Part shown: positions 6,956-28,988 of the stretch, one piece after another | How positions within the stretch are numbered: the stretch's first letter is position 1 | Layout: each line of letters opens with the position of its first letter | Assembly (NCBI RefSeq): GCF_000621645.1 | Contig: NZ_JHXR01000009.1 | Span: 1-32,000, forward strand | From: Vibrio cholerae ATCC 14035 | GTDB taxonomy: Bacteria; Pseudomonadota; Gammaproteobacteria; Enterobacterales; Vibrionaceae | DNA length: 32,000 nucleotides | Direction: 5' to 3' | Translations under genes and position numbers: made by a program | Notes under the pieces: generated by a model | What the model saw: only the letters and a program-made list of their open reading frames with translations | The model's database searches: none | Told to the model about the DNA's origin: nothing

Positions 6956-7665
6956 TTCCTTTCTCCCGCAACTTGGGTTGCGTTATTGAACCATTGAGTA
7001 ACCACTTCTAATCGAGTCAATGCAGAACCAACCGTTACGGCAACCGCACCAGACTCAATAGCTTTCGCTGCTAACTCAGGCGTATTGTATCGACCTTCCG
7101 CCATGGTAAAAAAGCCGGCTTCAGAAAACGCTTTCACAAGTTGGAAATCTGGAACCGTGGGCTCAATATCTCCGACATAGCCTGACAGTGTTGATCCAAC
7201 AATTTCAACACCTTGTGAGTTAGCCCATAATCCATCCTCGAATGTGGAGCAATCGGCCATCGCAAAACATCCCGTGTTTTTGATTGCTTGCGCAATACGT
7301 TCTCGACTTTCAGGGCGTGTTCTATCGGTGGCATCAAAAGCAATGACCGTTGCGCCAGCATTTGCTAAGCCATCAACATCTGAAACAAAAGGAGTGATTC
7401 GAATTGGGCTATCAGGCAAGTCACGCTTAACGATACCTATAATCGGAATTGTTACTGCGGCGGATACAGCAGCCACGTTATTCACACCTTCAATGCGCAG
7501 CGCTTTTGCACCCGCTTGTTCGACGGCGATCGCCATCGCCACAATGAAATCTGTTTTATCGAGTGGGCTGCCTGTTACAGGTTGTATGGAAACGACAGTT
7601 TGGCCGTTTAAAAATCGCTTTAACTCTTCGATATTCAAAAAATTCTTTCTCACGACGGGCCTCAT
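6943..7665 (-). CDS. nanE: N-acetylmannosamine-6-phosphate 2-epimerase
   Basis: The sequence is close to E. coli NanE as I recall it: [46 protein letters not shown] and [10 protein letters not shown]. Confidence 0.92.
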
Positions 7666-7879
7666 TTTTCTTTTCTAAAAACGTTTTTAATTCCTGACTT
7701 GATGAACAAAAGGACTCTTGTAACCAAATTTTGTTCGCCATCACACTTTGAAAAAAGGTGGTTTGAAAATAATCTCCACCGCAATGATAATTCATAACGA
7801 AGATTTTTTTCAAACGAAATAAAAGTTTTTTTTGAAAATGGTGAGACAAGGCGTAACAGGAAAGAACAAAGGGAAAAAT
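7666..7879. promoter_or_regulatory. Divergent nanE-nanK-nagA / siaPQM-nanA promoter-operator region
   Basis: This 214-bp AT-rich gap lies between divergent operons. TTTGAAAA(T) occurs at 7747-7756, 7762-7770 and 7831-7839, with an inverted copy at 7804-7814. A GGTGG...CCACC inverted repeat spans 7757-7780. Confidence 0.5.
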
Positions 7880-8845
7880 ATGAAAACCATTAATAAGATT
7901 ACTATCGCAATACTTACTTTGAGTGCTGCTGCTTCTGTCAATGCTGCGACGACTTTAAAGATGGGGATGCAAGCTTCTGTGGGGTCTGTAGAGTATAACT
8001 CGGCAAAAATGCTTGCCGACACATTAGAAGAAATGAGTCAAGGAGAGATCAAACTCGCTTTGTACCCAAGCGCCCAGCTTGGTGATGATCGTGCCATGCT
8101 TCAGCAATTGACGCTGGGAGATCTCGATATAACTTATGCTGAGTTTGGTCGTATGGGGCTTTGGATACCGCGAGCAGAAGCGGTCATGCTCCCTTATGTC
8201 GCGAAAGATTTTGACCATTTACGCCGCATGTTTGAATCTGACTTTGGTCAAGGTGTTCGTGATGAAATGCTCCAGAAGTTCAACTGGCGTGCTTTGGACA
8301 CTTGGTATAACGGTACCCGTGAAACCACTTCAAACCGTCCCCTCAATTCGATTGAAGATTTTAAAGGGTTAAAACTTCGAGTCCCGAATGCTAAGCAAAA
8401 CCTCAACTATGCAAAGCTGTCTGGTGCCTCGCCAACCCCGATGTCATTCTCTGAAGTTTATTTAGCGCTGCAGACCAATGCCGTAGATGGGCAAGAAAAC
8501 CCGCTACCAACAATTAAAACAATGAAGTTCTATGAAGTGCAAAAGAACTTAGCCATGACACATCATATTGTTAACGATCAAATGGTGATCATTTCGGAAT
8601 CTACTTGGCAGAAGCTTTCTGATACGGATAAAGACATCATTCAGAAAGCCGTGCAGAAAGTGGGAGATGCTCATACACAGACCGTTAAAACTCAAGAGGC
8701 AGAATTGGTCTCCTTCTTCAAGAGTGAAGGTATCAACGTGACTTACCCAGATCTGGAGCCATTCCGAGAAGCGATGCAACCACTTTACAAGGAGTTTGAC
8801 AGTAACATCGGTCAGCCGATTGTGTCGAAATTGGCAGCAATGTAA
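7880..8845 (+). CDS. siaP: TRAP transporter periplasmic sialic-acid-binding protein (DctP family)
   Basis: The ATG at 7880 gives the signal peptide MKTINKITIAILTLSAAASVNAA and a 321-aa DctP-type SBP (LRVPNA..., NPLPT). Genomic context with the Q and M subunits and nanA supports the call. Confidence 0.9.
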   Translation: MKTINKITIAILTLSAAASVNAATTLKMGMQASVGSVEYNSAKMLADTLEEMSQGEIKLALYPSAQLGDDRAMLQQLTLGDLDITYAEFGRMGLWIPRAEAVMLPYVAKDFDHLRRMFESDFGQGVRDEMLQKFNWRALDTWYNGTRETTSNRPLNSIEDFKGLKLRVPNAKQNLNYAKLSGASPTPMSFSEVYLALQTNAVDGQENPLPTIKTMKFYEVQKNLAMTHHIVNDQMVIISESTWQKLSDTDKDIIQKAVQKVGDAHTQTVKTQEAELVSFFKSEGINVTYPDLEPFREAMQPLYKEFDSNIGQPIVSKLAAM

Positions 8846-12788: not shown

Positions 12789-13943
12789 ATGAATATGAAA
12801 ACTCTATTGACTTACGCTACGTTACTTTCTGTGACAGCATTTAGTCATGTGGTCTATGCCGATAATCAATGGCCTGATTTACCTACTGGATTTAAAGATG
12901 GGGTTGGTGCACAAGTTGGTTCAAAAGTGTATGTAGGACTTGGATCTCTGGGGAAAAGCTTTTATGTACTTGATTTGAATGCATTATCGAAAGGATGGCA
13001 AAAGATTGCTGATTTTACCGGTGCTGAACGAAGTGGAGCGACGGCATCTGTAATAGGAAATTATATTTATCTCTTTGGTGGCTCCGGCAAAGCAGAACCG
13101 TCTGATCCATCGCCTATTTTGTTTGATTCGGTATATCGCTACGACACCAAGAAAGATTCATGGGAGAAAATGAATACGACCTCGCCTGTAGGACTTCTTG
13201 GTGCTTCTTCTTATTCTCCGGACAATAGACAGATCCTCTTTTTTGGTGGTTATAACAAAGCCTATTTTGATCGCTATCTGCGAGATATATCGACCACTGA
13301 CAAGCAAGTAAATCCTGAAGTATGGCAACGTATTGTTGATGATTATATGGGAATGACGCCTACGGATTATAAATGGAACCGAAACGTGATCAGTTATTTG
13401 CCTGAAAAACAAGAGTGGCGTGATTTAGGCGTGTCTACGTATCTCCCTAATTGTGGTAGCGCAACCGTTATTGAAGGGAACAAAGTAACTCTCATCAGTG
13501 GTGAGATAAAACCGGGTTTACGCACCGCTGAAGTTAAGCAATATGAATTTGGAATGGATCAACCGTGGAAAAGTTTGTTGCCCTTACCTGCACCCCAAAC
13601 GAGCAATATCCAAGAGGGTGTTGCAGGTGCATTTTCTGGGAAGACAAATGGAGTTGTAGTTGTTGCTGGTGGAGCGAATTTCCATGGTGCGAAACAAGCA
13701 TTTGAAAACGGAAAAATGTTCGCACATGAAGGGCTGCCTAAGGCGTTTAATTCCGAAATTTATGTAGAAAAAGAGGGCATTTGGTCAACGGTAAATTCGC
13801 TTCCTGAGGGCTTGGCATATGGGGCTTCATTTACTACATCAGAGGGTGTTTTAATTGTTGGTGGAGAAAAAAGTGGTAAAGAAATGAGTCATAAGGTTTA
13901 TATGTTGGCTTGGAATGGCTCTACTGTTGAAGTGATAGACTAA
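12789..13943 (+). CDS. nanM: N-acetylneuraminate epimerase/mutarotase (Kelch-repeat beta-propeller), exported
   Basis: The signal peptide [24 protein letters not shown] is followed by repeated Kelch-like units ([31 protein letters not shown]). The protein resembles E. coli YjhT/NanM. Confidence 0.85.
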
Positions 13944-13957
13944 TTAAGGAGAGCATT

Positions 13958-15028
13958 ATGGCAATCTCATTTCAATTACTCCCTGAGCTTCCAGTAGGAG
14001 TTAAACACGGAGTGGGTGGAATAATAGGTCAAAAATTGTATGCAGGGCTTGGTAGTTCTGGAAATGCATTTTTTGTTTTAGACCTAAAAGATATGAATAG
14101 TGGTTGGAAGTCGGCTGCTGACTTTCCTGGAATTGCTCGAAATGATGCTGCCTATACAGTCTGTGGTAACAAGCTTTATGTTTTTTCAGGTGCAGGGATA
14201 GAGGGCAATAACAGCTTTCCAACAGTTTTAATGGATGGTTATGTATTTGATAGTCAAATCAATCAATGGAAACGATTAGAGAGAACACTTCCTACCGGAT
14301 TTCTTGGTGCATCTTGTTGTAGTCTATCACCGACGGAGATCATTTTTTTCGGAGGGTATGATAAGGATACTTTTAATAACTTCCTTTCTGAAATCTCAAA
14401 AATTGATGTAACAAAAGAGCCTAATAAATATAAAGAGCTTATTACTATATTCATGTCTCAGCCAATCGATAACTATAATTGGAATAAAAATGTTTGGTCA
14501 TTTACACCATGCAATGAACACTGGTCAGTTGTTGGTGAAAACCCATTTAAGCCTAATTGTGGTTCTGGAATAATTCATAAAAACAACGTTGTAACTTTGA
14601 TTGAAGGCGAAGTAAAGCCTGGTCTGAGAAGCTTAGAAACTAAGCGCTACTTGTTTAAAGAAGGAAAACTGGAATATTCTGATAGTAGTGCCTCTATTAT
14701 TGATATATGTAAAAATCATGAAGGACTAGCTGGGCATTTTTTCGGTGAAATTGACAATAAGATAATTGTTATTGGTGGGGCATATTTTATTGGTAGTCAA
14801 GACGCATTTATAAAAGGAAACTTATATGCCCATAATGGCCTCATTAAACACTTTAGTTCGAATGTTTGGATTTTTGATGGTAAATCCTGGGAGAATAAAT
14901 GCCAATTAGATGCTGCAGGTATTGCCTATGGCGTTTCCGCTTCAAACGGAAAAGCTATGTATGTTTTAGGGGGAGAAAACTCTAATGGTGATGCAATGAC
15001 AAGATGCTTATCATTATTAATGGATTAA
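13958..15028 (+). CDS. NanM-like Kelch-repeat protein without a signal peptide (paralogue of the upstream gene)
   Basis: The sequence is collinear with nanM (LPxxxKxGVGxxxGxKxYxGLGSxGxxFxVLDL; FFGGYxKxxFxxxL; EGxxVTLIxGExKPGLR). It starts directly at MAISFQLLPELP with no hydrophobic leader. A strong AAGGAG RBS is present. Confidence 0.65.
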   Translation: MAISFQLLPELPVGVKHGVGGIIGQKLYAGLGSSGNAFFVLDLKDMNSGWKSAADFPGIARNDAAYTVCGNKLYVFSGAGIEGNNSFPTVLMDGYVFDSQINQWKRLERTLPTGFLGASCCSLSPTEIIFFGGYDKDTFNNFLSEISKIDVTKEPNKYKELITIFMSQPIDNYNWNKNVWSFTPCNEHWSVVGENPFKPNCGSGIIHKNNVVTLIEGEVKPGLRSLETKRYLFKEGKLEYSDSSASIIDICKNHEGLAGHFFGEIDNKIIVIGGAYFIGSQDAFIKGNLYAHNGLIKHFSSNVWIFDGKSWENKCQLDAAGIAYGVSASNGKAMYVLGGENSNGDAMTRCLSLLMD

Positions 15029-15092: not shown

Positions 15093-15953
15093 CTACTCCA
15101 AAACGTAGGATATAAGCTCATCCCGATTCCCCAGCACAATCTGTTGTCCTTGAGGATTAGATTTTTGTACATGGATATCAATGTTATAGGTATCAAGCAC
15201 ATAGCGAACGAGTGACGCGTTGGTGGCAATTCGCAAAACGCCGTCACTCATCGCATAATCTTTTTCTATCACCGCGCGTTGTTTTTCATTTAGGCGAAGA
15301 TCGGGGATGAGTTCTACGTTCACTTTGGTATTCCAAAGTACATCGTCACGTTTACCGTGTATCGCATTATTGTTGATGTCAGGAATACCTTGTATGCGGC
15401 TTAAGACAAAATCACGATAGCCACCAGCCTGTTCACAATAAGCGCGAACGTGCCAGCGTAATGGTGTGCAAACAAGAGTATGCGGGGAAATAATGCGCTC
15501 AGATTGCTCACCATCTTTTAGCGATGTGTAGCAAATATCGACACGTTTTTTCTCTCGTATCGCCTGCACCAAAGGACGTAATACTTGTGGCGAAATGTTG
15601 CGTGTTACTGGGCGAACCATAGTGGAATGTTCAAAGCCCATATCGAGCTCATTAAAAGTGACCGTCATATCCTCACTACGCGAAAGAATATGCAAGTATT
15701 CATCGGCATGGCCGGAGGTGAGTTTAGGGCTAAAGCTATCACTGGGCTTATAGCCTTTGAGGTGCTTATCGTAAACCAAGTTGCCAGGTGCAATATCCGC
15801 AAGATAAGTATTGATGTCTTTAGAAGCTTGTTGACGCCCGATACCAAAGCTCTGGATCAGATGGTTGGTGGTCAAACGCCCTTCCCATAAAGCAATAATC
15901 TCAATCATTCGGTATCGAAACAGCAGATCCCATCGAATTGGCCATGCACTCAT
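15093..15953 (-). CDS. WYL-domain transcriptional regulator (BrxR/CapW-like: wHTH, WYL and C-terminal extension)
   Basis: The N-terminal wHTH is IEIIALWEGRLTTNHLIQSFGIGRQQASKDINTY (about nt 15774-15926). The central WYL-type segment is VDICYTSL...RIISPHTLVCTPLRWHVRAYCEQAGGYRDFVLSRI (about nt 15384-15581). An AGGAA RBS is present, and the gene is divergent from the helicase-nuclease gene. Confidence 0.75.
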   Translation of the reverse strand: MSAWPIRWDLLFRYRMIEIIALWEGRLTTNHLIQSFGIGRQQASKDINTYLADIAPGNLVYDKHLKGYKPSDSFSPKLTSGHADEYLHILSRSEDMTVTFNELDMGFEHSTMVRPVTRNISPQVLRPLVQAIREKKRVDICYTSLKDGEQSERIISPHTLVCTPLRWHVRAYCEQAGGYRDFVLSRIQGIPDINNNAIHGKRDDVLWNTKVNVELIPDLRLNEKQRAVIEKDYAMSDGVLRIATNASLVRYVLDTYNIDIHVQKSNPQGQQIVLGNRDELISYVLE

Positions 15954-16070
15954 TGTTAGATTCCTGTCTAGTTATTCGACATGTTCATGTATTCAGTATT
16001 TACCTGTCGCTATTGGCGTTACATTATGGTCCGATTAATAAAACATCAACAACTGCTGGGGGAATATTGT
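15954..16070. promoter_or_regulatory. Divergent promoter region between the WYL regulator and ddmD
   Basis: This 117-bp gap lies between divergent starts. It holds small palindromes (TAGAttcctgTCTA, ACATGttCATGT), but I cannot assign an operator with confidence. Confidence 0.4.
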
Positions 16071-19000
16071 ATGAATGTATCGATAGAAGAGTTTACTCAT
16101 TTTGATTTTCAGCTTGTTCCCGAGCCTTCGCCGCTTGATCTGGTAATTACAGAGTCGCTCAAAAATCACATTGAAGTAAATGGCGTTAAATCTGGTGCTT
16201 TGCTCCCATTACCATTTCAGACTGGAATCGGGAAAACTTACACGGCACTAAATTTCTTACTCCAGCAGATGTTAGAGCAAGTACGAAGCGAGCTGAAAGA
16301 AGAAAATACCGGCAAAAAATCCAAACGCTTGCTGTATTACGTTACTGATTCAGTAGATAACGTGGTAAGCGCGAAAGCAGACTTGTTGAAGTTAATTGAA
16401 AAGCAGACAGTCAAGGGTGAGCCTCGCTTCACTTTAGAACAACAAGAGTACCTTAAAGCGCAAATAGTACACCTTCCCAACCAGTCAGAGCAGCTATTGC
16501 AATGTTCTGATGCGGTATTGAATGACGTGTTAATCGGATTTAACTTGAACGCTGAGCGTGATGTTCAAGCAGAGTGGAGTGCCATATCAGGTCTAAGACG
16601 TCATGCGAGTAACCCTGAAGTTAAAATCTCTTTAAATAGGCAAGCGGGTTACTTCTACCGTAATTTAATAGACCGTTTGCAAAAGAAACAAAAAGGGGCC
16701 GATAGAGTATTGTTGAGCGGTTCGTTGCTAGCATCCGTTGAAACACTATTGCCGGGTGAAAAAATTCGTAATGGAAGTGCTCATGTTGCTTTTTTAACGA
16801 CAAGTAAGTTTCTGAAAGGCTTCCACAATACTCGTTCGCGTTACAGTCCATTGCGCGATCTAAGTGGTGCTGTACTTATAATTGATGAAATTGACAAGCA
16901 GAATCAGGTCATCCTTTCTGAGTTGTGTAAGCAACAAGCGCAGGACTTAATTTGGGCAATCAGAACTTTAAGAGCAAACTTTCGAGACCATCAACTTGAG
17001 AGCTCGCCTCGCTACGACAAAATTGAAGATCTATTTGAACCGCTCCGTGAGCGACTTGAAGAGTTTGGCACCAATTGGAATCTAGCGTTCGCATTTAATA
17101 CGGAAGGTGCTAACTTGAATGAGCGGCCTGTTCGGTTGTTTTCGGATAGAAGCTTCACGCATGTAAGTAGTGCCACTCATAAGCTGTCATTAAAGTCAGA
17201 TTTTTTGAGACGGAAAAATCTCATATTCAGCGATGAGAAAGTAGAAGGCTCTCTCATCGAAAAACACGGCCTTTTAACCCGCTTTGTCAATGAAGCAGAT
17301 GTTATATATCAGTGGTTTCTTGGCACAATGCGTAAAGCCGTGTTTCAGTACTGGGAGAACGTTCGTGGCTTAGAAATCGAAGTACGCGAAAATAGAAGTC
17401 TAGAAGGAACGTTTCAAGAAGCTGTTCAATCCCTGCTTACTCACTTCAACTTACAAGAATTTGAGTCTGCAGTTTACGAGTCTTTCGATACGCGGGGGTT
17501 ACGGCAATCTGCAGGTGGTAAAGCGAACAAGTTAAGTTCTAGCAAGAGTTACCATCATACAGGGCTAAAACTTGTAGAGGTGGCTCATAATCAGGGGACT
17601 CGCGATACCGTAAATTGTAAAGCGTCATTCCTAAATACTTCACCATCGGGTGTTTTAGCGGATATGGTTGATGCAGGTGCCGTTATTCTCGGCATAAGTG
17701 CAACAGCGAGAGCAGACACCGTAATACATAACTTTGATTTTAAATACTTGAATGAGCGTTTGGGTAACAAGCTTCTATCTTTGTCGAGAGAGCAAAAACA
17801 GCGGGTAAATAATTATTACCATAGTAGACGCAACTATAAAGATAACGGCGTAGTTTTGACAGTCAAATATCTCAATAGCCGAGATGCGTTTCTTGATGCT
17901 TTGTTGGAGGAATATAAGCCGGAAGCTCGATCAAGTCACTTTATCCTAAATCACTATCTCGGTATTGCGGAATCAGAGCAGGCATTTGTTCGTAGTTGGT
18001 TGTCTAAGCTCTTAGCTAGCATTAAAGCGTTTATCTCATCCCCTGATAATCGTTATATGCTGTCGTTGTTAAACCGCACCCTAGATACAACACGTCAGAA
18101 CATTAACGATTTCATTCAGTTCTGCTGTGATAAATGGGCAAAAGAATTTAATGTTAAAACCAAGACATTTTTTGGTGTGAATGCTGATTGGATGAGATTA
18201 GTTGGCTACGATGAAATTTCCAAGCACCTAAATACTGAGCTAGGAAAAGTCGTTGTATTTAGCACATACGCTTCAATGGGAGCAGGCAAAAACCCTGATT
18301 ATGCAGTTAATTTAGCTTTGGAAGGTGAAAGCTTAATATCTGTTGCCGATGTCACTTATAGCACGCAGTTGCGAAGCGATATAGACAGTATTTATCTTGA
18401 AAAGCCTACTCAGCTACTCCTGTCAGATGATTACTCGCATACTGCCAACCAGCTTTGTCAATTCCACCAAATTTTATCTTTGCAAGAGAACGGCGAGTTG
18501 TCACCGAAAAGCGCTGAAAACTGGTGTCGCCAGCAACTTATGGGTATGAGCAGAGAGCGTTCTTTACAGCAATACCACCAAACAAGTGACTACCAAAGTG
18601 CAGTAAGGAAATACATTGAGCAAGCGGTAGGAAGAGCAGGAAGAACGTCCCTGAAACGAAAACAAATTCTCTTGTTTGTTGATTCTGGTTTGAAAGAAAT
18701 TCTGGCGGAAGAGAGTCGAGACCCAAGTTTGTTTTCGCACAAATATGTTGCTTTGGTTAATAAAGCGAAATCAGCTGGTAAGTCTATTGTTGAGGACCGA
18801 GCTGTTCGACGTTTATTCAATCTTGCTCAAAGAAACAATAAAGACGGTATGCTATCAATCAAAGCCCTAGTTCATCGTCTACATAATCAACCAGCATCTA
18901 AGAGTGATATTCAAGAGTGGCAAGACATTAGAACTCAGTTGCTCCGATATCCGACGGTGGCCTTTCAACCGGAGCGATTCAATCGATTGTACTTACAGTC

Positions 19001-19643
19001 TATGACAAAAGGGTATTACCGTTATCAAGGTAATTTAGATGGTGATCCGAATAGCTTCGAGTTCTTTGATAGGGTGCCTTATGGCGACATGGTGTCAGAG
19101 GAAGATTGCAGCCTAGCGACGTTAGTACAGAACCAATATGTGAGGCCGTGGTTTGAACGCAAAGGCTTTGCCTGTTCGTGGCAAAAAGAAGCGAATGTGA
19201 TGACGCCAATTATGTTTACCAACATTTATAAGGGAGCCTTGGGCGAGCAAGCGGTAGAGGCAGTGCTAACAGCATTCGATTTTACCTTTGAAGAAGTTCC
19301 AAATTCTATTTACGAGCGATTTGACAATAGAGTCATATTTGCAGGGATTGAGCAACCGATCTGGCTAGACAGCAAATACTGGAAGCATGAAGGTAATGAA
19401 AGCAGCGAAGGCTACAGTTCGAAAATTGCATTGGTAGAAGAAGAGTTTGGACCTTCGAAGTTTATTTATGTGAATGCGTTAGGGGATACTTCAAAACCCA
19501 TTAGATACTTGAACTCGTGCTTCGTAGAAACCTCACCACAGTTAGCTAAAGTTATTGAGATTCCGGCACTAATTGATGATAGCAATGCCGACACCAACCG
19601 AACAGCAGTACAGGAGTTGATAAAATGGTTACACCACAGCTAG
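16071..19643 (+). CDS. ddmD: DdmD-type defence protein: N-terminal SF2 helicase fused to a C-terminal PD-(D/E)xK nuclease (1190 aa)
   Basis: Helicase motifs: Walker A TGIGKT (16221-16238), motif II DEID (16884-16895), motif III SAT within GISATA (17697-17705) and motif VI QAVGRAGRT (18621-18647). Nuclease motifs: GALGEQAVE helix, FDNRV (D at 19323-19325) and LDSKYW (19368-19376). I prefer the start at ATG 16071, which has a GGGGGA RBS. That start numbers the Walker lysine K55 and the nuclease lysine K1102, matching the DdmD mutant positions I recall. Confidence 0.9.
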   Translation: MNVSIEEFTHFDFQLVPEPSPLDLVITESLKNHIEVNGVKSGALLPLPFQTGIGKTYTALNFLLQQMLEQVRSELKEENTGKKSKRLLYYVTDSVDNVVSAKADLLKLIEKQTVKGEPRFTLEQQEYLKAQIVHLPNQSEQLLQCSDAVLNDVLIGFNLNAERDVQAEWSAISGLRRHASNPEVKISLNRQAGYFYRNLIDRLQKKQKGADRVLLSGSLLASVETLLPGEKIRNGSAHVAFLTTSKFLKGFHNTRSRYSPLRDLSGAVLIIDEIDKQNQVILSELCKQQAQDLIWAIRTLRANFRDHQLESSPRYDKIEDLFEPLRERLEEFGTNWNLAFAFNTEGANLNERPVRLFSDRSFTHVSSATHKLSLKSDFLRRKNLIFSDEKVEGSLIEKHGLLTRFVNEADVIYQWFLGTMRKAVFQYWENVRGLEIEVRENRSLEGTFQEAVQSLLTHFNLQEFESAVYESFDTRGLRQSAGGKANKLSSSKSYHHTGLKLVEVAHNQGTRDTVNCKASFLNTSPSGVLADMVDAGAVILGISATARADTVIHNFDFKYLNERLGNKLLSLSREQKQRVNNYYHSRRNYKDNGVVLTVKYLNSRDAFLDALLEEYKPEARSSHFILNHYLGIAESEQAFVRSWLSKLLASIKAFISSPDNRYMLSLLNRTLDTTRQNINDFIQFCCDKWAKEFNVKTKTFFGVNADWMRLVGYDEISKHLNTELGKVVVFSTYASMGAGKNPDYAVNLALEGESLISVADVTYSTQLRSDIDSIYLEKPTQLLLSDDYSHTANQLCQFHQILSLQENGELSPKSAENWCRQQLMGMSRERSLQQYHQTSDYQSAVRKYIEQAVGRAGRTSLKRKQILLFVDSGLKEILAEESRDPSLFSHKYVALVNKAKSAGKSIVEDRAVRRLFNLAQRNNKDGMLSIKALVHRLHNQPASKSDIQEWQDIRTQLLRYPTVAFQPERFNRLYLQSMTKGYYRYQGNLDGDPNSFEFFDRVPYGDMVSEEDCSLATLVQNQYVRPWFERKGFACSWQKEANVMTPIMFTNIYKGALGEQAVEAVLTAFDFTFEEVPNSIYERFDNRVIFAGIEQPIWLDSKYWKHEGNESSEGYSSKIALVEEEFGPSKFIYVNALGDTSKPIRYLNSCFVETSPQLAKVIEIPALIDDSNADTNRTAVQELIKWLHHS

Positions 19644-21688
19644 AACCTTCCTCGCAGGGGCCCTTATCAACCTTAATTGAACAAATATCAATTGATACTG
19701 ATTGGGTTGATAGAAGCTTCGCGATTTACTGTGTCAGTTATAAAGGCATAGACTTCTCAGAACGACCTAAGCGTTTGGTGACATTGGCGTCTGAAACCTA
19801 TAAATCAGGAAGTGTCTATTGCTTAGTCAAAGGTGCCAATAAAGAAGCGTGTTATTGGGTGTTGTTACCAAAGGATTCAAAGTTAGATCTCAAAGATACG
19901 TCTTTGGCCATTAAACCAAGTAGTGCTGCCGAGCTACCTACATGGCAGTTGGCTCGTTTATTGATTAAAGCGATACCCAAAGTATTGAGTGGCACAATGC
20001 CTGAGATAAAGCGCTTTGAAAGTGAAGGTTTGTATTATTTAGTCAAAAGCAAAAAGTTACCGAAAGATCACTCTGGCTATGAATTAACGACCGTCGAAAT
20101 CGACTTAGCTCCATGTGCAGCACTTGGATTCAAACAAACACTTTCAATGGGCACTAAAACATTTTCTCCCTTGTCTTGGTTTACGCTAGAGAACGGAGAA
20201 GTACAAAAAAAGGCAAGGTTTGCTACACGTTATCAACTTGACGATGTTGGGAAGTTGGTCAGTAAATCCATAAAGGGCGACTACATCAAGAAGCCGCTTT
20301 ACTCTAATGCGAAGAATCGAATTCAGGCAATTGATATCACCAAAGAATCTTATAGCGGTTTTCAATTATCTAAGGTCGGTATTCTTGAACAGTTTATGCA
20401 AGATCTTAAGCAAGCTTATGGTGATTCAGTATCCGTGAAGTTGCAGCGGATTCCCGGGGAAAAGCACAGATTTGTTTCAGATACGATTGTCAAAAATCAC
20501 TATGTAGGGCTGTTTGATGCGTTGAAAGAGCATCGTTTGGTGATCTGTGATTTAACCGAAAACCAAGACACAGACGCTGCATTAACCTTGCTTCATGGTA
20601 TCGAGCATCTAGATATAAATGCAGAAATAGCTGAAGTTCCGATTCGTGGGGCATTGAATATCCTAATTGTTGGTAATAAAGACACCTACAAGTCAGATGA
20701 AGAAGACCCGTATCAGGTTTATCGCAAGAAGTACCAAGATACGGTTTTCCAGTCGTGTTACCCAGAGCGCTTATGGAACCGTCAAGGCCAGCCAAACCGC
20801 CATGTGGTGGAAGTGCTGTTAAAAGAACTACTTATCAAGCTAGAAGTCCATACAAGAAAACATTTGATTGAGTACCCAAGTGGGCCTGAAAGATGTGTGT
20901 ATTACATGCCTCAGCGACCAAAAGACGAGTCTTCAGAGGTTCGAGACGAGCCGTGGCCAGTGTATGCGTCTAAGTTAGTTGGCGATGAATGGCAATATAC
21001 ACAAGCGACCCAAGAGGAGCTTGAAGATATTGAACTCGATTTAGGTAATGATAAAAGGCATGTATTTCATGGGTTTGAACGTTCTCCTGTTATTTATTGG
21101 CCGGAGACGGGGGACTATGCCATTTTCATTGACACTGGCATTCAAATGCTTCCGGAATTTGAAGCGGTTGCAGAGCGATTGCGTGAACTCAAAGAAGGGC
21201 GATCACAAGATGTCCCGATTGCATTGTTGGCTCAGTTCATTGAAGAAAACCCAGAGAGTAAAGTAATAAACAAACTGAGAGCGATATTGTCAGAGTGGGA
21301 TGATGTAGCACCTCTACCGTTTGATGAGTTTTCTACAATCGCGTACAAAAGCAGTGATGAAAAACAATTCTATGATTGGCTGCGTGAACAAGGATTCTTT
21401 TTAAAAACATCGATAAGAGGGCAAAGTGAGGGATTCTTTAATGCATCTTTAGGATTCTTCTATAACCGAGAGCAGGGGATGTACTTTGCTGGTGGTAAAG
21501 GCAGCCCACAAAGTAAAATCGAGACCTTTAGCCATTTATACCTGATAAAACATTCGTTTGATGCACTACCTGAAGAGGTAGAAAACTTGTTTGACGTTTA
21601 TCACTTAAGGCATCGCTTACCAACCGTAACGCCTTATCCATTTAAGCATCTACGTGAGTATGTTGAGATGCAGCGTTTTAGATCTTGA
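19625..21688 (+). CDS. ddmE: DdmE-type partner protein (687 aa), reported as a catalytically inactive prokaryotic Argonaute-like protein
   Basis: The ATG at 19625 overlaps the ddmD stop (19641-19643) by 19 nt, consistent with translational coupling. I can see no simple linear motif by eye. The assignment rests on synteny (downstream of ddmD, upstream of hsdM in VPI-2) and on published descriptions, and the Argonaute fold cannot be verified from sequence reading alone. Confidence 0.8.
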   Translation: MVTPQLEPSSQGPLSTLIEQISIDTDWVDRSFAIYCVSYKGIDFSERPKRLVTLASETYKSGSVYCLVKGANKEACYWVLLPKDSKLDLKDTSLAIKPSSAAELPTWQLARLLIKAIPKVLSGTMPEIKRFESEGLYYLVKSKKLPKDHSGYELTTVEIDLAPCAALGFKQTLSMGTKTFSPLSWFTLENGEVQKKARFATRYQLDDVGKLVSKSIKGDYIKKPLYSNAKNRIQAIDITKESYSGFQLSKVGILEQFMQDLKQAYGDSVSVKLQRIPGEKHRFVSDTIVKNHYVGLFDALKEHRLVICDLTENQDTDAALTLLHGIEHLDINAEIAEVPIRGALNILIVGNKDTYKSDEEDPYQVYRKKYQDTVFQSCYPERLWNRQGQPNRHVVEVLLKELLIKLEVHTRKHLIEYPSGPERCVYYMPQRPKDESSEVRDEPWPVYASKLVGDEWQYTQATQEELEDIELDLGNDKRHVFHGFERSPVIYWPETGDYAIFIDTGIQMLPEFEAVAERLRELKEGRSQDVPIALLAQFIEENPESKVINKLRAILSEWDDVAPLPFDEFSTIAYKSSDEKQFYDWLREQGFFLKTSIRGQSEGFFNASLGFFYNREQGMYFAGGKGSPQSKIETFSHLYLIKHSFDALPEEVENLFDVYHLRHRLPTVTPYPFKHLREYVEMQRFRS

Positions 21689-21704
21689 TAGCAGACTAAA
21701 CCAC

Positions 21705-21751
21705 GGTGCTAGTAACGAGCAGAAACGCATGTTTTATTCGCTACTAGTGCC
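21705..21751 (+). terminator. Imperfect hairpin between ddmE and hsdM (candidate weak terminator or RNA structure)
   Basis: The arms GGTGCTAGTAACGA (21705-21718) and TCGCTACTAGTGCC (21738-21751) form 14 positions, with two G-U wobbles and one mismatch. No T-tract follows. Confidence 0.3.
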
Positions 21752-21828
21752 AAAAGTCAGTAAAATTCTGCCCAATCATCCCTATTATTGTTTGAATTTC
21801 AAGCAACTATTGCTTTAAGAAGAAAATT

Positions 21829-24210
21829 ATGGACCACTCAGTACATAACAAACTCGTTTCATTTATTTGGTCGATTGCCGACGACTGTCTTCGTGATGTC
21901 TATGTTCGTGGTAAATACCGCGACGTTATCTTGCCTATGGTGGTGCTACGCCGTCTGGATACGCTTTTGGAGCCATCAAAAGAAGCAGTACTGGAAGAAG
22001 TCAGATTCCAAAAAGAAGAGATGAATGAAATTGAGCTTGATGACGCACCATTATGCGCTACATCAGGTTATGTGTTCTACAACACGTCCAAGTGGACTCT
22101 GCAAACGCTATTCAGTACAGCGACTAACAACCAACAGATTCTGCTGGCTAACTTCGAAGATTACCTCAACGGTTTTAGCGAAAACGTAAAAGAGATTGTT
22201 GAGTGTTTTAACCTGAAAGCCCAAATCCGTCACATGGCAGGGAAAGACGTTCTGCTAGATGTGGTTGAGAAATTCGTCTCGCCGTACATCAACTTAACGC
22301 CAGCGGTTAAAGAAGATCCTGAGGGTAACAAACTACCAGCACTCAGCAACCTTGGTATGGGCTATGTATTTGAAGAATTGATTCGTAAGTTCAACGAAGA
22401 GAACAACGAAGAGGCGGGGGAGCACTTTACTCCGCGTGAAGTGATCGAGCTGATGACGCACCTTGTTTTCGATCCAATCAAAGATAACTTGCCACTTTCT
22501 ATCACAGTGTATGACCCAGCATGTGGTAGTGGCGGTATGCTGACAGAAACGCAAAACTTTGTTGAAGAGAAATACCCAGCATCAAACCGTGATATCTACC
22601 TTTACGGTAAAGAGATCAACGATGAGACTTACGCTATCTGTAAGTCAGATATGATGATCAAAGGTAACAACCCAGAAAACATCCGTGTAGGTTCAACCCT
22701 TTCCACTGACGAATTCTCATCTAATCGCTTCGATTTCATGCTCTCTAACCCGCCTTATGGTAAGAGCTGGGCGAGTGAGCAAAAGCACATCAAAGAAGGC
22801 AAAGAAGTCGTTGATGGTCGCTTTAAAGTGAAGTTAAAAGATTACTGGGGTGTAGAGAGCGAGCAAGAAGCGATACCACGCTCAAGTGATGGCCAGTTAC
22901 TGTTCCTGATGGAAATGGTCACCAAAATGAAGTCGCCGCAAGACAGCCCATTGGGTTCACGCATTGCGTCCGTTCACAATGGTTCAAGCTTGTTTACCGG
23001 TGATGCGGGTAGTGGTGAAAGTAATATTCGTCGTTTCATCATAGAAAATGACATGCTGGATGCGATTGTTCAGTTGCCAAACAACCTGTTCTACAACACG
23101 GGTATTACCACGTACATCTGGCTGCTCAATAACAACAAACCTGAAAATCGCCAAGGCAAAGTGCAGCTGATTGATGCTAGCTTACTGTTCCGTAAGTTGC
23201 GTAAGAACTTGGGTAATAAAAACTGCGAATTTTCGCCAGAGCACATTGCGGAAATTGTCTCGACCTATCTTGAGAATCAATCTGTTGAACGTGCTATTGA
23301 TGAGAAAGGCGATCCGGTCGGTATTGCCGCGCAAGTATTCAAGAACCAAGATTTTGGTTACTACAAAGTCAATATTGAGCGCCCAGATCGCCGAAATGCC
23401 CAATTCCGCGCTGACTTAATTGAGCCGTTACGTTTTGAAAACTCACAGCGTGAAGTCATGGAGTACTTGTACGCCGAATATGGCGAGCAAGTCTATGACG
23501 CAGGTTTTGTTAAAGGGATTGAAAAAGAGATCACCAAGTGGTGTGAAGAAAATGATATCAGCCTAAACAAAGCGGCAAAAACCAAGTTGCTGGATACGAA
23601 AAACTGGATTAAACAACGCACACTGGTGAATGTAGCGAGTCAATTACACAAAAAGATCGGTGACGAAGTTTACAACGACTTTAACCAGTTCAAACAATTA
23701 GTAGATGCAGAACTTACATCACTCGGCCTTAAGCTTTCAGCACCAGAAAAGAAAGCCATCTTGGATGCGGTAAGCTGGTATGACGAAAATGCAGAAAAAG
23801 TCATCAAGAAAGTCGCCAAGCTAAAGCAAGATAAGTTAGACGAACTGCTAGAAAACTACGAATGTGAACTGCAAGATTTGCCAGATTTCGGGTACTACCC
23901 AACGGGCAACCACAACGAGTTCGTGACTTATGAATCAAGTTCAGACTTGCGTGATAGCGAATCCGTTCCACTTGAGCAAAGCATTTACCAATACTTCCTT
24001 GATGAAGTAAAGCCGCATGTAGATGAAGCTTGGATAAATCTTGAATCAGTCAAGATTGGTTATGAGATCAGCTTTAACAAGTACTTCTATCGCCATAAGC
24101 CACTGCGCTCAATGGATGAGGTCGCTGGTGACATTATTGCGCTTGAACAAAAAGCGGAAGGCTTAATTGCTGACATTTTGGGCATCTCTGTGGCTAAGGT
24201 TCAGGGGTAA
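21829..24210 (+). CDS. hsdM: Type I restriction-modification system DNA methyltransferase subunit (N6-adenine), a long 793-aa form
   Basis: The SAM-binding motif I DPACGSGG (22513-22536) and the catalytic motif IV NPPYG (22747-22761) are present. The N-terminal HsdM_N-like segment is LVSFIWSIADDCLRDVY...RDVILPMVVLRRLD. Confidence 0.95.
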   Translation: MDHSVHNKLVSFIWSIADDCLRDVYVRGKYRDVILPMVVLRRLDTLLEPSKEAVLEEVRFQKEEMNEIELDDAPLCATSGYVFYNTSKWTLQTLFSTATNNQQILLANFEDYLNGFSENVKEIVECFNLKAQIRHMAGKDVLLDVVEKFVSPYINLTPAVKEDPEGNKLPALSNLGMGYVFEELIRKFNEENNEEAGEHFTPREVIELMTHLVFDPIKDNLPLSITVYDPACGSGGMLTETQNFVEEKYPASNRDIYLYGKEINDETYAICKSDMMIKGNNPENIRVGSTLSTDEFSSNRFDFMLSNPPYGKSWASEQKHIKEGKEVVDGRFKVKLKDYWGVESEQEAIPRSSDGQLLFLMEMVTKMKSPQDSPLGSRIASVHNGSSLFTGDAGSGESNIRRFIIENDMLDAIVQLPNNLFYNTGITTYIWLLNNNKPENRQGKVQLIDASLLFRKLRKNLGNKNCEFSPEHIAEIVSTYLENQSVERAIDEKGDPVGIAAQVFKNQDFGYYKVNIERPDRRNAQFRADLIEPLRFENSQREVMEYLYAEYGEQVYDAGFVKGIEKEITKWCEENDISLNKAAKTKLLDTKNWIKQRTLVNVASQLHKKIGDEVYNDFNQFKQLVDAELTSLGLKLSAPEKKAILDAVSWYDENAEKVIKKVAKLKQDKLDELLENYECELQDLPDFGYYPTGNHNEFVTYESSSDLRDSESVPLEQSIYQYFLDEVKPHVDEAWINLESVKIGYEISFNKYFYRHKPLRSMDEVAGDIIALEQKAEGLIADILGISVAKVQG

Positions 24211-24214
24211 GCTG

Positions 24215-25555
24215 ATGAGCAATACTATGATTAAGAAGATGCCCAAATACGAGTCTTACAAAGACTCTTGTGAGCAATGGATTGGTGACATCCCCGCTCA
24301 TTGGGAAGTTTATAGGTTAAAAAGCGCTGTATATGAGTGCTCAAATGGTATTTGGGGAAGTGATCCTAACGGTAGGGACGAAATAGTCGTGCTGAGGGTT
24401 GCTGACTTTGATGATCACAAACTCAAAATATCAGATGAAAAACTTACTTATCGCTCAATTCCAGCAAAAGAGCGCCAGGGGCGTCTGTTAAAAAATGGAG
24501 ATTTGCTGATCGAAAAATCTGGTGGGGGAGATAAAACTCTAGTCGGAAGAGTAGTATTGTTTGATAAACAATACCCAGCAGTAACATCTAATTTTGTCGC
24601 AAAAATGACACCTAAAGAGTGGGTTATATCTGGATTCTTGAAGTACGTATTTTCTGCTTTATACAATAATGGAGTTAACTATCTTTCTATAAAGCAAACT
24701 ACTGGCATACAGAATCTCGATGCTAGCTCATATCTAAATGAAAAATTTTGTATCCCTCAAAAAGAGGAGCAATATGAAATAGCTAAGTTTCTCGACAACA
24801 AAACGACACAGATAAATGAAGCAATCGCAATCAAACAAAAGCAAATCGAGCTGCTAAAAGAACGCAAACAAATCATCATTCAGCAAGCAGTGACACAAGG
24901 TTTGAATCCCGATGCAACGATGAAATATTCAGGTGTGGATTGGATAGGAGCTATTCCAGGGCATTGGATCGTCAAAAGAGCTAAATACCTTTTAGATGAA
25001 ATCAATGAGCGTTCAGAGACAGGGCTTGAAGAGCTACTTTCAGTTTCCCACATGACTGGCGTAACTCCACGATCCGAGAAAAACGTCACCATGTTCATGG
25101 CGGAAGACTACACAGGTTCAAAGCTCTGCCACTCTGGTGATCTAGTGATCAACATAATGTGGGCATGGATGGGAGCGTTAGGTGTATCTGACAGAACTGG
25201 TATTGTGAGCCCATCATATGGCGTATTCCGTGAACAGCGCGAGGGCACTTTTGTACCTAAATATCTGGAGATGTTGCTGAAATCAACTAAGTATGTTGAA
25301 TACTACAACAAGGTCTCTACAGGACTTCATTCTTCTCGATTACGTTTTTATGGGCACATGTTGTTTGATATGGCTTTGGGCTTTCCTCCTTATGAAGAAC
25401 AAACACAAATTGTTGAATACATAAGCAGAGAATGTTCGAAAGTTGATGAAGCAATAACTGTTCAGGCTGAGCAAGTAAGTAAGCTCAAAGAATACAAAAC
25501 CACTCTCATCAACAGCGCTGTAACCGGCAAAATCAAAGTAACGGAGCTGGCGTAA
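24215..25555 (+). CDS. hsdS: Type I restriction-modification specificity subunit
   Basis: Two target-recognition halves are each followed by the conserved coiled-coil spacer (QINEAIAIKQKQIELLKERKQIIIQQAVTQGL and KVDEAITVQAEQVSKLKEYKTTLINSAVTGKIKV). I prefer the ATG at 24215, which is 4 nt after the hsdM stop. The ORF-track start at 24167 would overlap hsdM. Confidence 0.9.
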   Translation: MSNTMIKKMPKYESYKDSCEQWIGDIPAHWEVYRLKSAVYECSNGIWGSDPNGRDEIVVLRVADFDDHKLKISDEKLTYRSIPAKERQGRLLKNGDLLIEKSGGGDKTLVGRVVLFDKQYPAVTSNFVAKMTPKEWVISGFLKYVFSALYNNGVNYLSIKQTTGIQNLDASSYLNEKFCIPQKEEQYEIAKFLDNKTTQINEAIAIKQKQIELLKERKQIIIQQAVTQGLNPDATMKYSGVDWIGAIPGHWIVKRAKYLLDEINERSETGLEELLSVSHMTGVTPRSEKNVTMFMAEDYTGSKLCHSGDLVINIMWAWMGALGVSDRTGIVSPSYGVFREQREGTFVPKYLEMLLKSTKYVEYYNKVSTGLHSSRLRFYGHMLFDMALGFPPYEEQTQIVEYISRECSKVDEAITVQAEQVSKLKEYKTTLINSAVTGKIKVTELA

Positions 25556-26968
25556 ATGGCGGTTGTTGTTGCCAGTTGCACACTGGATAAGCTGTTTTCT
25601 AATGAGTCGATTTTAGCTTCTGACGGTAAAGTTCAAAAAAACGTTCACGGGATGCTTGCCATCCCTGAATATCAGCGTCCCTATCGCTGGAATGAAGAGC
25701 AAATCACCCGTCTATTGAAAGATTTCAAGCTTCATCAGCAAGAGTTAAATGACAAGCTTGAAACAGAGCATTGCCCATTCTATTTAGGTAGTGTGATTCT
25801 GCATCAGCAGGGTGACAAGCTGAATATCATCGATGGTCAGCAACGTTTGACCACAATGGCGTTGATGTCTTATCTAGCAAATAAACATGTCGATCTTAAA
25901 CTAGTTTACGAATCGCCTGAGAGTCAGCAGCAAATCAAACACAATCTTGGTTGGTTGTATAGAAATGAAGCCTCTTTGGCTGATATCGATTTTGCTCAAA
26001 TCAATATTACCTTGGTGGTGACAGACAGTGAAGATGAAGCCTACCGCTTTTTTGAAACCCAAAACACGGGCGGCGTGCGATTAGCCGGGCCAGATATTAT
26101 TAAAGCGCACCATCTTAGAGCGGTTGATGAGAAAGATAAGTCTGCGGTAAACACCTTTGCCACACGTTGGGAAGCGCTGGGGGATTTAAACCCCGTGGTC
26201 GATATTTTGCTACGTGGTCGCTATTGGCAATATCTGAACTTCCGAGACTACCCGCTGCACAACCAAACTCAGCAAGTGCGAAATAGTATTGTCACCGAAC
26301 TGGCAGAGCACACAGGCAAAGGCGACGATATTGCCTTTGGTAGAATTGCTCGTACTTATATGCCCAACGGTGGAGAGAGCTTGGCACAGCCTCAAGTTGG
26401 CTATGAATTGCGCCAGCCGCTAAACAGTGGCGCTAATACCATTCACTATTTGCAATATTTTGAGCAACTGCGCCAAACCTATTTGCTGAAAAACTCAACG
26501 CAAGGTGAGCTTGCAGGCTTTTACGAGTTCTATCAAAAGCTGGTGTGTAAACTTGATGGCTGCGGCTATCTCAAACAGCTTTATGACGCTTGCCTGCTGC
26601 TCTACATCAGTCAGCATGGGCAGCAAAGCCTAGAGGTAGCAGCGAAAAAACTTTTCCGCGTGGTTTACTCTCGACGTGTAGAGAACCAAAAAGCAGTAAA
26701 AGAGAAATCGGTTCCTGCTTTTGTCAAAGAAACCCCAGTGCTGGATTGGATTGCGATGAGCTATACCCCAGAGCAGTGTTTCGCACAGCTTGATGGTTTT
26801 AAGCTGTCGGTAGACAAGAGTGGCTTTGATAAAAACAGCGTTAAAAAACGTTTCGTCGAAAAAGTGTCTCAATACTTTGGCCTTGATATAGACAAGCAAG
26901 ATTATGCCAATCAATTTGGCCCTGCATTTAGCCAACACATCTCTGCGTTAGGAGCAAAACATGGGTGA
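25556..26968 (+). CDS. DUF262 (ParB/GmrSD N-terminal-like) protein without a recognisable C-terminal HNH/DUF1524 module
   Basis: Hallmark DUF262 motifs are present: IPEYQRPYRW, IIDGQQRLTT (DGQQR at 25832-25846) and FETQNTGGVRLAGPDIIKAH. The start ATG directly abuts the hsdS stop (TAAATG). Confidence 0.8.
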   Translation: MAVVVASCTLDKLFSNESILASDGKVQKNVHGMLAIPEYQRPYRWNEEQITRLLKDFKLHQQELNDKLETEHCPFYLGSVILHQQGDKLNIIDGQQRLTTMALMSYLANKHVDLKLVYESPESQQQIKHNLGWLYRNEASLADIDFAQINITLVVTDSEDEAYRFFETQNTGGVRLAGPDIIKAHHLRAVDEKDKSAVNTFATRWEALGDLNPVVDILLRGRYWQYLNFRDYPLHNQTQQVRNSIVTELAEHTGKGDDIAFGRIARTYMPNGGESLAQPQVGYELRQPLNSGANTIHYLQYFEQLRQTYLLKNSTQGELAGFYEFYQKLVCKLDGCGYLKQLYDACLLLYISQHGQQSLEVAAKKLFRVVYSRRVENQKAVKEKSVPAFVKETPVLDWIAMSYTPEQCFAQLDGFKLSVDKSGFDKNSVKKRFVEKVSQYFGLDIDKQDYANQFGPAFSQHISALGAKHG

Positions 26969-28952
26969 TCATTTATCGGTGCAAACTGAGCTTCTGACGC
27001 TTGAGAAAATCTACACCGACAACTACCAGTTCTCTATTCCCAGCTATCAACGTCCTTATGTCTGGTCAGATGATGATGTCTTGCTGCTGTTCAGAGATAT
27101 TAAAGAAGCGTGTCGATTAAAAGAGCCAAACTACTTTATCGGCACCATCCTGTCGTCTCGCATTGAACAAGATGGAGAGCGGATCTATGAGTTGATCGAT
27201 GGTCAGCAACGCACGACAACGCTAATGCTCATGACCATTGCTTTCAAGTACGCAGGCATTAAATCCGATCTTGCAGGGCTTGCTGTTTATACATCGAGTG
27301 ATGGTGAAGATAAGCCACGTCTCCAATTTTCAATTCGTGAGCAAGTTCAGCAGCTTTTAGGTGGTCTAGCGGGGCTTAAGAACTATCAAGTGCCGTCTAA
27401 GGAAACGATCGCTGACAATGCTTATTTGAAACAGATGGGCGTGGCGTTAGACGTATTGACCAAAGAAGTAGAGAAGCTCAAATCAGACGATGGGGTGAGC
27501 GCCGAAGCTATGGGGGATTACCTCTACCGCCAAGTTCAATGGGTAAATAACATTGTGCCAACACAAATGGACTTAAACCGATTGTTTGCCACCATGAATA
27601 CCGCTGGCATTCAATTAGAACAAGCGGACATTCTAAAGGCGAAGCTGTTCAAGCATATCCATACTGACAAAGCACAGTATGATGCAATGTGGGTGGCGTG
27701 TGAGCATCTGGAAAACTATTTTGAACGCAATGTACGCAAAGTATTTCCTAATGCGGATTGGTACCATATTGAACCCGAACATTTGGCGTCTTTTGATGCT
27801 GAACGTTTCGCTGCAAAAGATGAAACGTCAGAGGCGTTGTCTGGCTTGTCGATTGCTGAGCTAGCGTCACAAGTTAAAGCAAGTTCAATTCCTGATAACA
27901 CCGAGCAAGAGAAGTTTGAAACTTACGACTTGGACGTTGAAACAGTTTATTGTCGCCCGATCATCAAGTTCCCGCTGTTATTGATTCACGCTTATCGAGT
28001 CTACTTAGCGCTTAATGATCATAATGATATTGAACCACGTCTGCATAGCGATCGCTTGTTGGAGATATTCGACCCACTTATCAACGGTGATGAGCAATCG
28101 GTAAAGCTGTTTATTGAAACGCTATGGCAGGTTCGCTACCAGTTTGACCGTTGGGTTGTAAAATGGGTTGAATGTGATGATGCGACAGATGCGCAGCTCG
28201 GCTTAACGTATCAATCTCGCAGCAAGTCGAATGACACTTACTACATCAACCGAACGCAGAAAGAGCTGACGGATATTGTGCTTTTGCAAAGTGTTCGCAA
28301 CTTTACCGGTGAGCGCAGCGCCCAGTATTGGTTAACACCATTTCTTTCAGGCTTGATCCGTTCGAGTATCAAGCAAGACTCTGTCGCGTTAGAGCTACTA
28401 GAAAACATTGACAACAAAATGTCATTGTCTGTTGATACTCAAAAAGAGGCCAGCTTTGCACTCGCTGAAGGCATAGAGCCAAACTGCCAGAGTTGGCAAT
28501 CTCAATCGACATATTTTGCAAAGTCGTTAGGTACGAGCTTTGAGCATTACTGGTTTCAAAAACTTGAATATTTGATTTGGAAGAAAATGAAGGCGTCAGA
28601 ATCTTCATTGCCTTCTGAAGAATTGAATAAGTTTAAAAAGTACCGGATTACATCCAAAAACTCAGTAGAACATGTTCATCCTCAAAATGATGAGTATAAC
28701 AGTAGGTTAGACTGTGAAACGTTAAACTCATTTGGAAATCTAGTGCTACTGAGTCCAGGTGAAAACTCGTCTTATAGCAATCAAGATGTTGACAAGAAAC
28801 GCATCGACTTCGAGAGAAAATCCCACTTTGACGCACTGAAATTAAGAGAGATATTCGGTGTGAAAGGTCAGGGACTGTGGGGCAAACAGCAGATAGATAA
28901 CCATCTAGAAGACATGATGGCAGTATTTGCTCAGCACTATAAACATCAATAA
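26961..28952 (+). CDS. GmrSD-family protein (N-terminal DUF262 plus C-terminal DUF1524 His-Me finger nuclease), a candidate type IV modification-dependent restriction enzyme
   Basis: DUF262 motifs: IPSYQRPYVW, LIDGQQRTTT (27198-27212) and FATMNTAGIQLEQADILKAKLF. C-terminal DUF1524 motifs: SVEHVHPQN (EHVHPQN at 28668-28688) followed by FGNLVLLSPGENSSYSNQ. The gene overlaps the previous gene by 8 nt (ATGGGTGA). Confidence 0.85.
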   Translation: MGDHLSVQTELLTLEKIYTDNYQFSIPSYQRPYVWSDDDVLLLFRDIKEACRLKEPNYFIGTILSSRIEQDGERIYELIDGQQRTTTLMLMTIAFKYAGIKSDLAGLAVYTSSDGEDKPRLQFSIREQVQQLLGGLAGLKNYQVPSKETIADNAYLKQMGVALDVLTKEVEKLKSDDGVSAEAMGDYLYRQVQWVNNIVPTQMDLNRLFATMNTAGIQLEQADILKAKLFKHIHTDKAQYDAMWVACEHLENYFERNVRKVFPNADWYHIEPEHLASFDAERFAAKDETSEALSGLSIAELASQVKASSIPDNTEQEKFETYDLDVETVYCRPIIKFPLLLIHAYRVYLALNDHNDIEPRLHSDRLLEIFDPLINGDEQSVKLFIETLWQVRYQFDRWVVKWVECDDATDAQLGLTYQSRSKSNDTYYINRTQKELTDIVLLQSVRNFTGERSAQYWLTPFLSGLIRSSIKQDSVALELLENIDNKMSLSVDTQKEASFALAEGIEPNCQSWQSQSTYFAKSLGTSFEHYWFQKLEYLIWKKMKASESSLPSEELNKFKKYRITSKNSVEHVHPQNDEYNSRLDCETLNSFGNLVLLSPGENSSYSNQDVDKKRIDFERKSHFDALKLREIFGVKGQGLWGKQQIDNHLEDMMAVFAQHYKHQ

Positions 28953-28988
28953 AAACTTCGAGTCATCAAACTAAACAACGTGGTATTT

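Follow-up and report, generated by a model that had tools for sequence, protein, structure and literature searches.

The two genes at positions 16071 to 21688 of a 32,000-nucleotide stretch of DNA from Vibrio cholerae ATCC 14035 (contig NZ_JHXR01000009.1, positions 1 to 32,000 of the forward strand; hereafter, the window) are, judged from their sequences, almost certainly ddmD and ddmE, which together form DdmDE, a DNA-defence module borne on VPI-2 (Vibrio pathogenicity island 2). In phmmer searches, the 687 amino acid product of the second gene was identical at 687 of 687 positions to PDB sequences of V. cholerae DdmE (8u3k_E and 9bgk; also 9ezy_B and 8u0j_A). The 1190 amino acid product of the first gene matched five V. 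cholerae DdmD sequences (8u0u, 9bf1, 9ezx, 9khv and 8u0w) over its full length at 1189 of 1190 positions, with E = 0. The PADLOC models for DdmD and DdmE likewise match end to end with E = 0, the former scoring 2779 bits over positions 1–1190 of 1190, while a Pfam search returned zero matches in either protein. An exact-sequence look-up identified DdmE as Q9KR73_VIBCH, which is carried on at least 1000 contigs, and DdmD as VC0395_A1369 of Vibrio cholerae O395. The gene pair VC1770–VC1771 has been described as DdmDE within VPI-2, beside Zorya and a type I restriction-modification (R-M) system (PMC9608740, PMC12409362).

A first-pass annotation, made from the sequence alone, had interpreted the two genes as a DdmDE-type operon that was probably already described, and both statements are well supported. 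The comparison with V. cholerae DdmD and DdmE is strongly positive, and the system is published, structurally solved and included in the PADLOC library. DdmDE is in fact fully characterised, with genetics from 2022 and multiple cryo-electron microscopy (cryo-EM) structures from 2024–2025; at least a dozen PDB entries exist for it (14 entry codes among the phmmer matches). The further equation of the genes with VC1771 and VC1770 stands for the locus but not for the allele, which is the O395-type form with lysine at DdmD residue 891 and not that of N16961 and 7PET (the El Tor lineage of the seventh pandemic).

The first gene, ddmD (the VC1771 orthologue), spans 16071..19643 on the forward strand and encodes a superfamily 2 helicase fused to a C-terminal PD-(D/E)xK nuclease, with a layout of HD1, an inserted domain, Arch and HD2 followed by the nuclease. 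In the open reading frame (ORF) map the longest frame for this gene is 15981..19643 (+), within which the in-frame ATG at 16071 yields exactly 1190 residues. The frame from ATG 15981 gives 1220 residues and corresponds to an older annotation; PDB constructs exist in both lengths. A GGGGGA Shine-Dalgarno sequence is located 8 nt 5' of ATG 16071, and since this element and the ATG are both kept in six related loci, the 1190-residue start is favoured over the 1220-residue one. The ORF map and translation thus bear out the gene model proposed earlier, comprising a 1190-residue protein from ATG 16071, a 687-residue protein and a 19-nt overlap between them.

The helicase motifs are found in frame on the forward strand. 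Walker A (helicase motif I, TGIGKT) lies at 16221..16238 (residues 51–56, with the K55 codon at 16233-16235), Walker B (motif II, DEID) at 16884..16895 (residues 272–275, including D272 and E273), SAT at 17697-17705 (residues 543–545) and motif VI (GRAGRT) at 18630..18647 (residues 854–859, including the arginine fingers R855 and R858). The catalytic residues of the nuclease, E1059, E1082, D1085, D1100 and K1102, fall within 19245..19376 (+), with D1085 encoded at 19323-19325 and the DSK tripeptide (residues 1100–1102, ending in K1102) at 19368-19376. The first-pass coordinates for TGIGKT, DEID, SAT, D1085 and DSK translate as claimed, and its numbering of the Walker lysine as K55 and the nuclease lysine as K1102, counted from ATG 16071, is accurate. 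For GRAGRT the motif and its frame were right but the range given, 18621-18647, starts 9 nt too far upstream and translates as QAVGRAGRT.

Conservation of these positions is extensive. Across 40 aligned homologues, the most distant of them at about 21% identity, K55, D272, E273, S543-A544-T545, R855 and R858 are unvarying, bar one gap at K55, and D1085, D1100 and K1102 are kept in all but one 903-residue protein (P0096). The motifs are therefore not chance matches. Structural studies assign Mg2+ coordination to D272 and the arginine-finger role to R855 and R858 (PMC11795196), and place the nuclease centre at E1059/E1082/D1085/D1100/K1102 (bioRxiv 10.1101/2024.07.20.604412). A residue-by-residue check found every published catalytic, DNA-binding and interface residue of DdmD and DdmE in the window.

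The second gene, ddmE (VC1770), spans 19625..21688 on the forward strand and encodes a catalytically inactive long prokaryotic Argonaute (pAgo) from the 'long-C' clade, a protein that senses DNA with the help of a DNA guide. It lies directly after ddmD on the same strand, in an order that is kept in related loci, and the ddmD stop and ddmE start overlap by 19 nt (19625..19643, +), an arrangement consistent with translational coupling of the two genes in one operon. The Argonaute nature of this protein, which had been proposed earlier, was examined by predicting its structure with AlphaFold2 on an alignment of 18 DdmE homologues (mean pLDDT 88.3, pTM 0.86) and comparing the model with the PDB using Foldseek. 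The solved cryo-EM structures of V. cholerae DdmE were recovered with TM scores of 0.88–0.92 (8u3k_E, and 9ezy_B at 0.92). Outside the DdmE family, all 18 further matches at E <= 0.001 were to Argonaute-type complexes, with E values from 2e-8 to 2e-5. Seventeen of these are named Argonautes, among them TtAgo from T. thermophilus (5gq9 and 4nca), PliAgo from Pseudooceanicola lipolyticus (7r8k) and human Ago2 (4ola), and the other is an unnamed protein-DNA complex (8xih). The Foldseek probability for the Argonautes is 1.00 with a global TM of 0.3–0.38, a low value that is expected because these are flexible multidomain proteins. The predicted structure thus resembles MID/PIWI proteins and argues for an N-L1-(PAZ-like)-L2-MID-PIWI long-pAgo fold in DdmE.

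Residue-level features of DdmE agree with this assignment. The residues Y363, Y379, K405, E401 and E678, which form the pocket for the guide 5' end (Loeff et al. preprint; bioRxiv 10.1101/2024.07.20.604412), are present in the MID pocket of the window protein and are invariant in the 18 DdmE homologues, except for Y379, which is nearly so. DdmE has no DEDX tetrad, and its target is left uncleaved (Loeff et al. preprint); the missing tetrad places DdmE among the inactive pAgos, yet still within the pAgo family. As had been anticipated, ordinary annotation overlooks the protein, for which Pfam gives no match and a phmmer search of the PDB recovers nothing beyond DdmE.

Jaskolska, Adams and Blokesch reportedly identified the DdmDE of 7PET V. 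cholerae as VC1771/VC1770 in 2022. Compared with this studied system (8u0u, 8u3k, 9bf1, 9bgk, 9ezx, 9ezy and 9khv), the window has the same DdmE, 19-nt overlap, VPI-2 neighbours, upstream WYL gene, and catalytic and interface residues, and the sole difference is lysine in place of glutamate at DdmD residue 891. The Lactobacillus casei DdmDE (9ix4, 9ixm and 9iw3) shares the two-protein architecture and fold (Foldseek E = 5e-26 and TM of about 0.7 for DdmE; phmmer E = 6e-14 for DdmD), but its DdmE is only about 15% identical and it comes from a Gram-positive host with another genomic context. The long-B and short pAgo systems (BPAN pAgo-nuclease, SPARTA and SPARDA) have in common with DdmDE an inactive Argonaute that serves as a guided sensor and activates a separate effector. 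They mostly use RNA guides and act through a collateral nuclease or NADase in abortive infection, whereas DdmE uses short 5'-phosphorylated DNA guides and hands its target to a helicase-nuclease. DdmE has been placed in its own 'long-C' clade, in which a C-APAZ domain stands instead of PAZ (Loeff et al. preprint).

The mechanism can be outlined from the literature, which reports experiments by other groups on proteins that match those of the window exactly or almost exactly. DdmE requires a 5'-phosphorylated single-stranded DNA guide of about 12–14 nt (Loeff et al. preprint), and once loaded it pairs with plasmid DNA and opens a displacement loop (D-loop). DdmD alone is an auto-inhibited homodimer with nuclease activity on single-stranded DNA, and it is recruited by DdmE only on a D-loop-like double-stranded target (Loeff et al. 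preprint). On recruitment the DdmD dimer disassembles and a monomer is loaded onto the displaced non-target strand, along which it translocates 5'->3' by ATP hydrolysis through a gate-clamp mechanism involving R855/R858, Q781 and F639 (PMC12409362, PMC11795196). The auto-inhibited dimer, the handover complex and the direction of translocation have all been described (PMC12409362, PMC11795196, bioRxiv 10.1101/2024.07.20.604412). The C-terminal nuclease of DdmD, with K1102, then nicks or degrades the DNA, and small multicopy plasmids are lost. Neither the helicase-dead K55A nor the nuclease-dead K1102A form eliminates plasmids in E. coli or nicks them in vitro (Loeff et al. preprint); these published inactivating mutants are the very ones that had been put forward as negative controls for this locus. 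Three further steps may be proposed. Translation of ddmD and ddmE would be coupled through their 19-nt overlap, VC1772 (the WYL regulator encoded upstream) would repress ddmDE until released by a signal of DNA damage or restricted infection, and the guides would arise from the products of DdmD cleavage or through end resection.

No evidence speaks against the DdmDE identification itself, and the points that weigh against our account of the locus concern its activity and its control. The lysine of the window allele replaces an otherwise invariant E891 of DdmD, and the published experiments used the E891 form, which is found in all five PDB sequences. The literature leaves two questions unsettled, namely how the guides arise and how far plasmid damage goes, from a nick or a gap to full degradation (PMC12409362, bioRxiv 10.1101/2024.07.20.604412). 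Regulation of ddmDE by VC1772 is, for its part, only a literature hypothesis.

Codon 891 of ddmD (18741..18743, +) reads AAA for lysine, where the common V. cholerae allele, the PDB sequences of DdmD and the homologues have glutamate; by its sequence the window carries the O395-type (classical) ddmD allele. Glutamate is present in all 35 full-length homologues of 30–100% identity, for which this is one of 79 invariant positions out of 1190 and the only one where the window departs, and in 16 of 16 DdmD genes that adjoin ddmE in GTDB loci. The window DdmD differs only at residue 891 from P0022, the common V. cholerae allele, which is carried on at least 1000 contigs. The K891 allele is itself found in identical form in many assemblies (58 index blocks), and a V. 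cholerae-type contig from Logan (L021) matches 9.5 kb of the window exactly. The residue belongs to a conserved S-H-E-Y-x-A-L motif in the HD2 helicase domain, 33 residues past the arginine finger R858, and its replacement by lysine reverses the charge.

A complete V. cholerae genome (L022; AP026558.1, GCA_030295265.1) carries the same K891 ddmD, and its ddmE is called as two ORFs of 293 and 382 amino acids. The split (locus positions 6555-8617) is due to a 1-nt indel near the position equivalent to 20459 in the window, which is either a true frameshift or a sequencing or assembly error.

The strongest alternative accepts the locus as DdmDE and holds that its allele is crippled or weakened, with E891K impairing ATP-driven translocation or folding so that the O395-type operon eliminates plasmids poorly or not at all. 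We regard this as possible but unlikely. The invariance of E891 across the 35 homologues, the 16 DdmD of the GTDB loci, the five PDB sequences and the common allele argues for it, as does the reversed charge 33 residues behind R858, and the split ddmE found together with K891 in the genome just described would fit relaxed selection, or equally a sequencing error. The ORF is intact, however, and all known functional residues are unchanged. K891 persists identically in many assemblies, and a very remote homologue (P0099, 21% identity) aligns lysine at the same position. In the structural literature searched we found no role for E891, nor any mention of E891, H890 or Y892, and a literature search for DdmDE activity in classical strains or in O395 returned nothing. 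From the conservation pattern, a functional defect of DdmD caused by E891K can be suggested only tentatively. It is doubtful, on the same sequence comparisons, that the substitution weakens or abolishes DdmD to the point that the classical pandemic lineage would have effectively lacked both plasmid-elimination modules, which would follow because DdmABC is also absent there.

It is very improbable that ddmDE, instead of being a dedicated anti-plasmid module, serves mainly against phages or in general DNA repair, as a helicase-nuclease with an accessory protein. It does share its defence island with Zorya, the type I R-M system and TgvAB (PMC12409362), its transcription rises in restricted ICP1 infection (bioRxiv 10.1101/2025.11.13.688357) and the DdmD helicase core resembles repair helicases of the DinG type (PMC11795196, bioRxiv 10.1101/2024.07.20.604412), but the direct experiments in the literature covered all show plasmid elimination and DNA-guided plasmid nicking, a review calls DdmDE anti-plasmid and mainly active on small plasmids (PMC12409362), and a housekeeping role in repair is at odds with the strict linkage of ddmD to a pAgo gene.

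The DdmDE locus is preceded by a gene that the first-pass annotation did not include. VC1772, at 15093..15953 on the reverse strand, lies between the nan cluster and ddmD, is divergent from the latter and encodes a 286 amino acid helix-turn-helix (HTH) WYL regulator of the BrxR/YafY-like type, a putative repressor of ddmDE. The WYL domain is recognised by Pfam (E = 3e-16) and PADLOC (E = 5.5e-40), precomputed Pfam annotation gives WHD_BrxR, WYL and BrxR_CTD, and the exact sequence is Q9KR71_VIBCH, present on at least 1000 contigs. The same arrangement of a divergent HTH-WYL gene directly upstream, with the same three domains, is seen in defence operons regulated by WYL, BrxR or CapW proteins, whereas for ddmDE repression by VC1772 has only been proposed (Blokesch review PMC12409362; preprint bioRxiv 10.1101/2025.11.13.688357). 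Induction of ddmDE during restricted ICP1 infection was found to be independent of BrxR (bioRxiv 10.1101/2025.11.13.688357).

The divergent intergenic region (15954..16070, 117 bp) presumably holds the promoters and operator, together with the ddmD Shine-Dalgarno sequence. Of the 20 ddmE loci found in GTDB, 9 carry a WYL gene in divergent orientation upstream of ddmD, and three of these 9 have a DdmE of only 33–36% identity (Bacterioplanes, a metagenome-assembled genome of Oceanospirillaceae, and Mangrovitalea). Conserved intergenic blocks with the consensus sequences TATTCAGTATTTACCTGTCG and AAACATCAA are common to the WYL-bearing loci (alignment A2) and are missing from two WYL-less Pseudoalteromonas loci; they are candidate operator or promoter elements. 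The conserved linkage and the shared blocks together provide comparative support, not proof, for a functional link between VC1772 and ddmDE. A simple scan for sigma-70 promoters and terminators predicted no promoter within these 117 bp, and its total of sites did not exceed that of shuffled sequence; a repeat search of the region gave only a weak 9-nt inverted repeat, from which no operator could be called.

The surroundings are those of the published 'defence region' of VPI-2. The position of the two genes on this island as given in the first-pass annotation, with the nan cluster on one side and the type I R-M system on the other, is confirmed by the nan-nag genes, the type I R-M genes and TgvAB found in the window. 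Upstream, the nan-nag cluster comprises nagA, nanK, nanE, a DctP-family binding protein and a DctM large permease of the tripartite ATP-independent periplasmic (TRAP) type, nanA, an RpiR-type regulator and two nanM genes. The latter, which are in tandem and encode NanM-type N-acetylneuraminate epimerases with Kelch repeats (12789-13943 and 13958-15028, +), end the cluster before the WYL gene. Downstream of ddmE follow hsdM (21829-24210) and hsdS (24167-25555), and a presumed hsdR with an ORF of more than 1000 amino acids starts near 28990 and runs off the end of the window. The two GmrSD-like genes between hsdS and the presumed hsdR are the published type IV restriction system TgvAB. Both tgvA (VC1767, 25556-26968, +) and tgvB (VC1766, 26961-28952, +) encode DUF262 proteins, the second also with a DUF1524/GmrSD_C nuclease domain. 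The GC content is 39–46% throughout the window, in which an Rfam scan gave no matches. Two antisense ORFs, at 15585-15890 (+) and 20490-20795 (-), were treated as spurious because they lie inside well-supported genes.

Relatives of the locus were collected by scanning GTDB species genomes for ddmE, which gave the 20 loci mentioned above, mostly in marine Gammaproteobacteria. In these, ddmD is almost always directly upstream of ddmE. In Vibrio chanodichtyis, Pseudoalteromonas and Aliivibrio, ddmDE and the type I R-M and TgvAB genes travel as a block with 86–96% DNA identity (loci L001–L006 against window positions 15127-29738). In most of these cases the WYL gene also belongs to the block, which does not include the nan cluster. 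In V. chanodichtyis (L001) the best segment is 100% for DdmE, the DNA is 96% identical to the window and the nan cluster is absent. For Photobacterium jeanii (L002) the detected match is confined to the WYL gene and ddmDE (window 15135-21689). Such a distribution suggests that the defence region has been transferred horizontally as one module.

Acinetobacter dispersus ANC 4105 contains two ddmE-like genes, one of which (L018) has a 1209 amino acid ddmD directly upstream. For the other (L017), neither a ddmD homologue nor any ORF of at least 250 amino acids was detected upstream, and Marinomonas fungiae (L010) has a ddmE with no recognisable ddmD. The ddmE genes of L017 and L010 may be orphan or re-partnered.

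The finding of DdmDE in this genome is thus that of a known system, and the leads that merit a small follow-up are E891K and the conservation of the linkage with the WYL gene. If E891K does impair DdmD, then E891, within its S-H-E-Y motif, would be a functional residue that is absent from the structural literature searched. DdmDE helps to explain the near-absence of small plasmids in pandemic V. cholerae. It also marks out a clade of its own among inactive Argonautes, one that is guided by DNA and passes its targets on to a helicase-nuclease.

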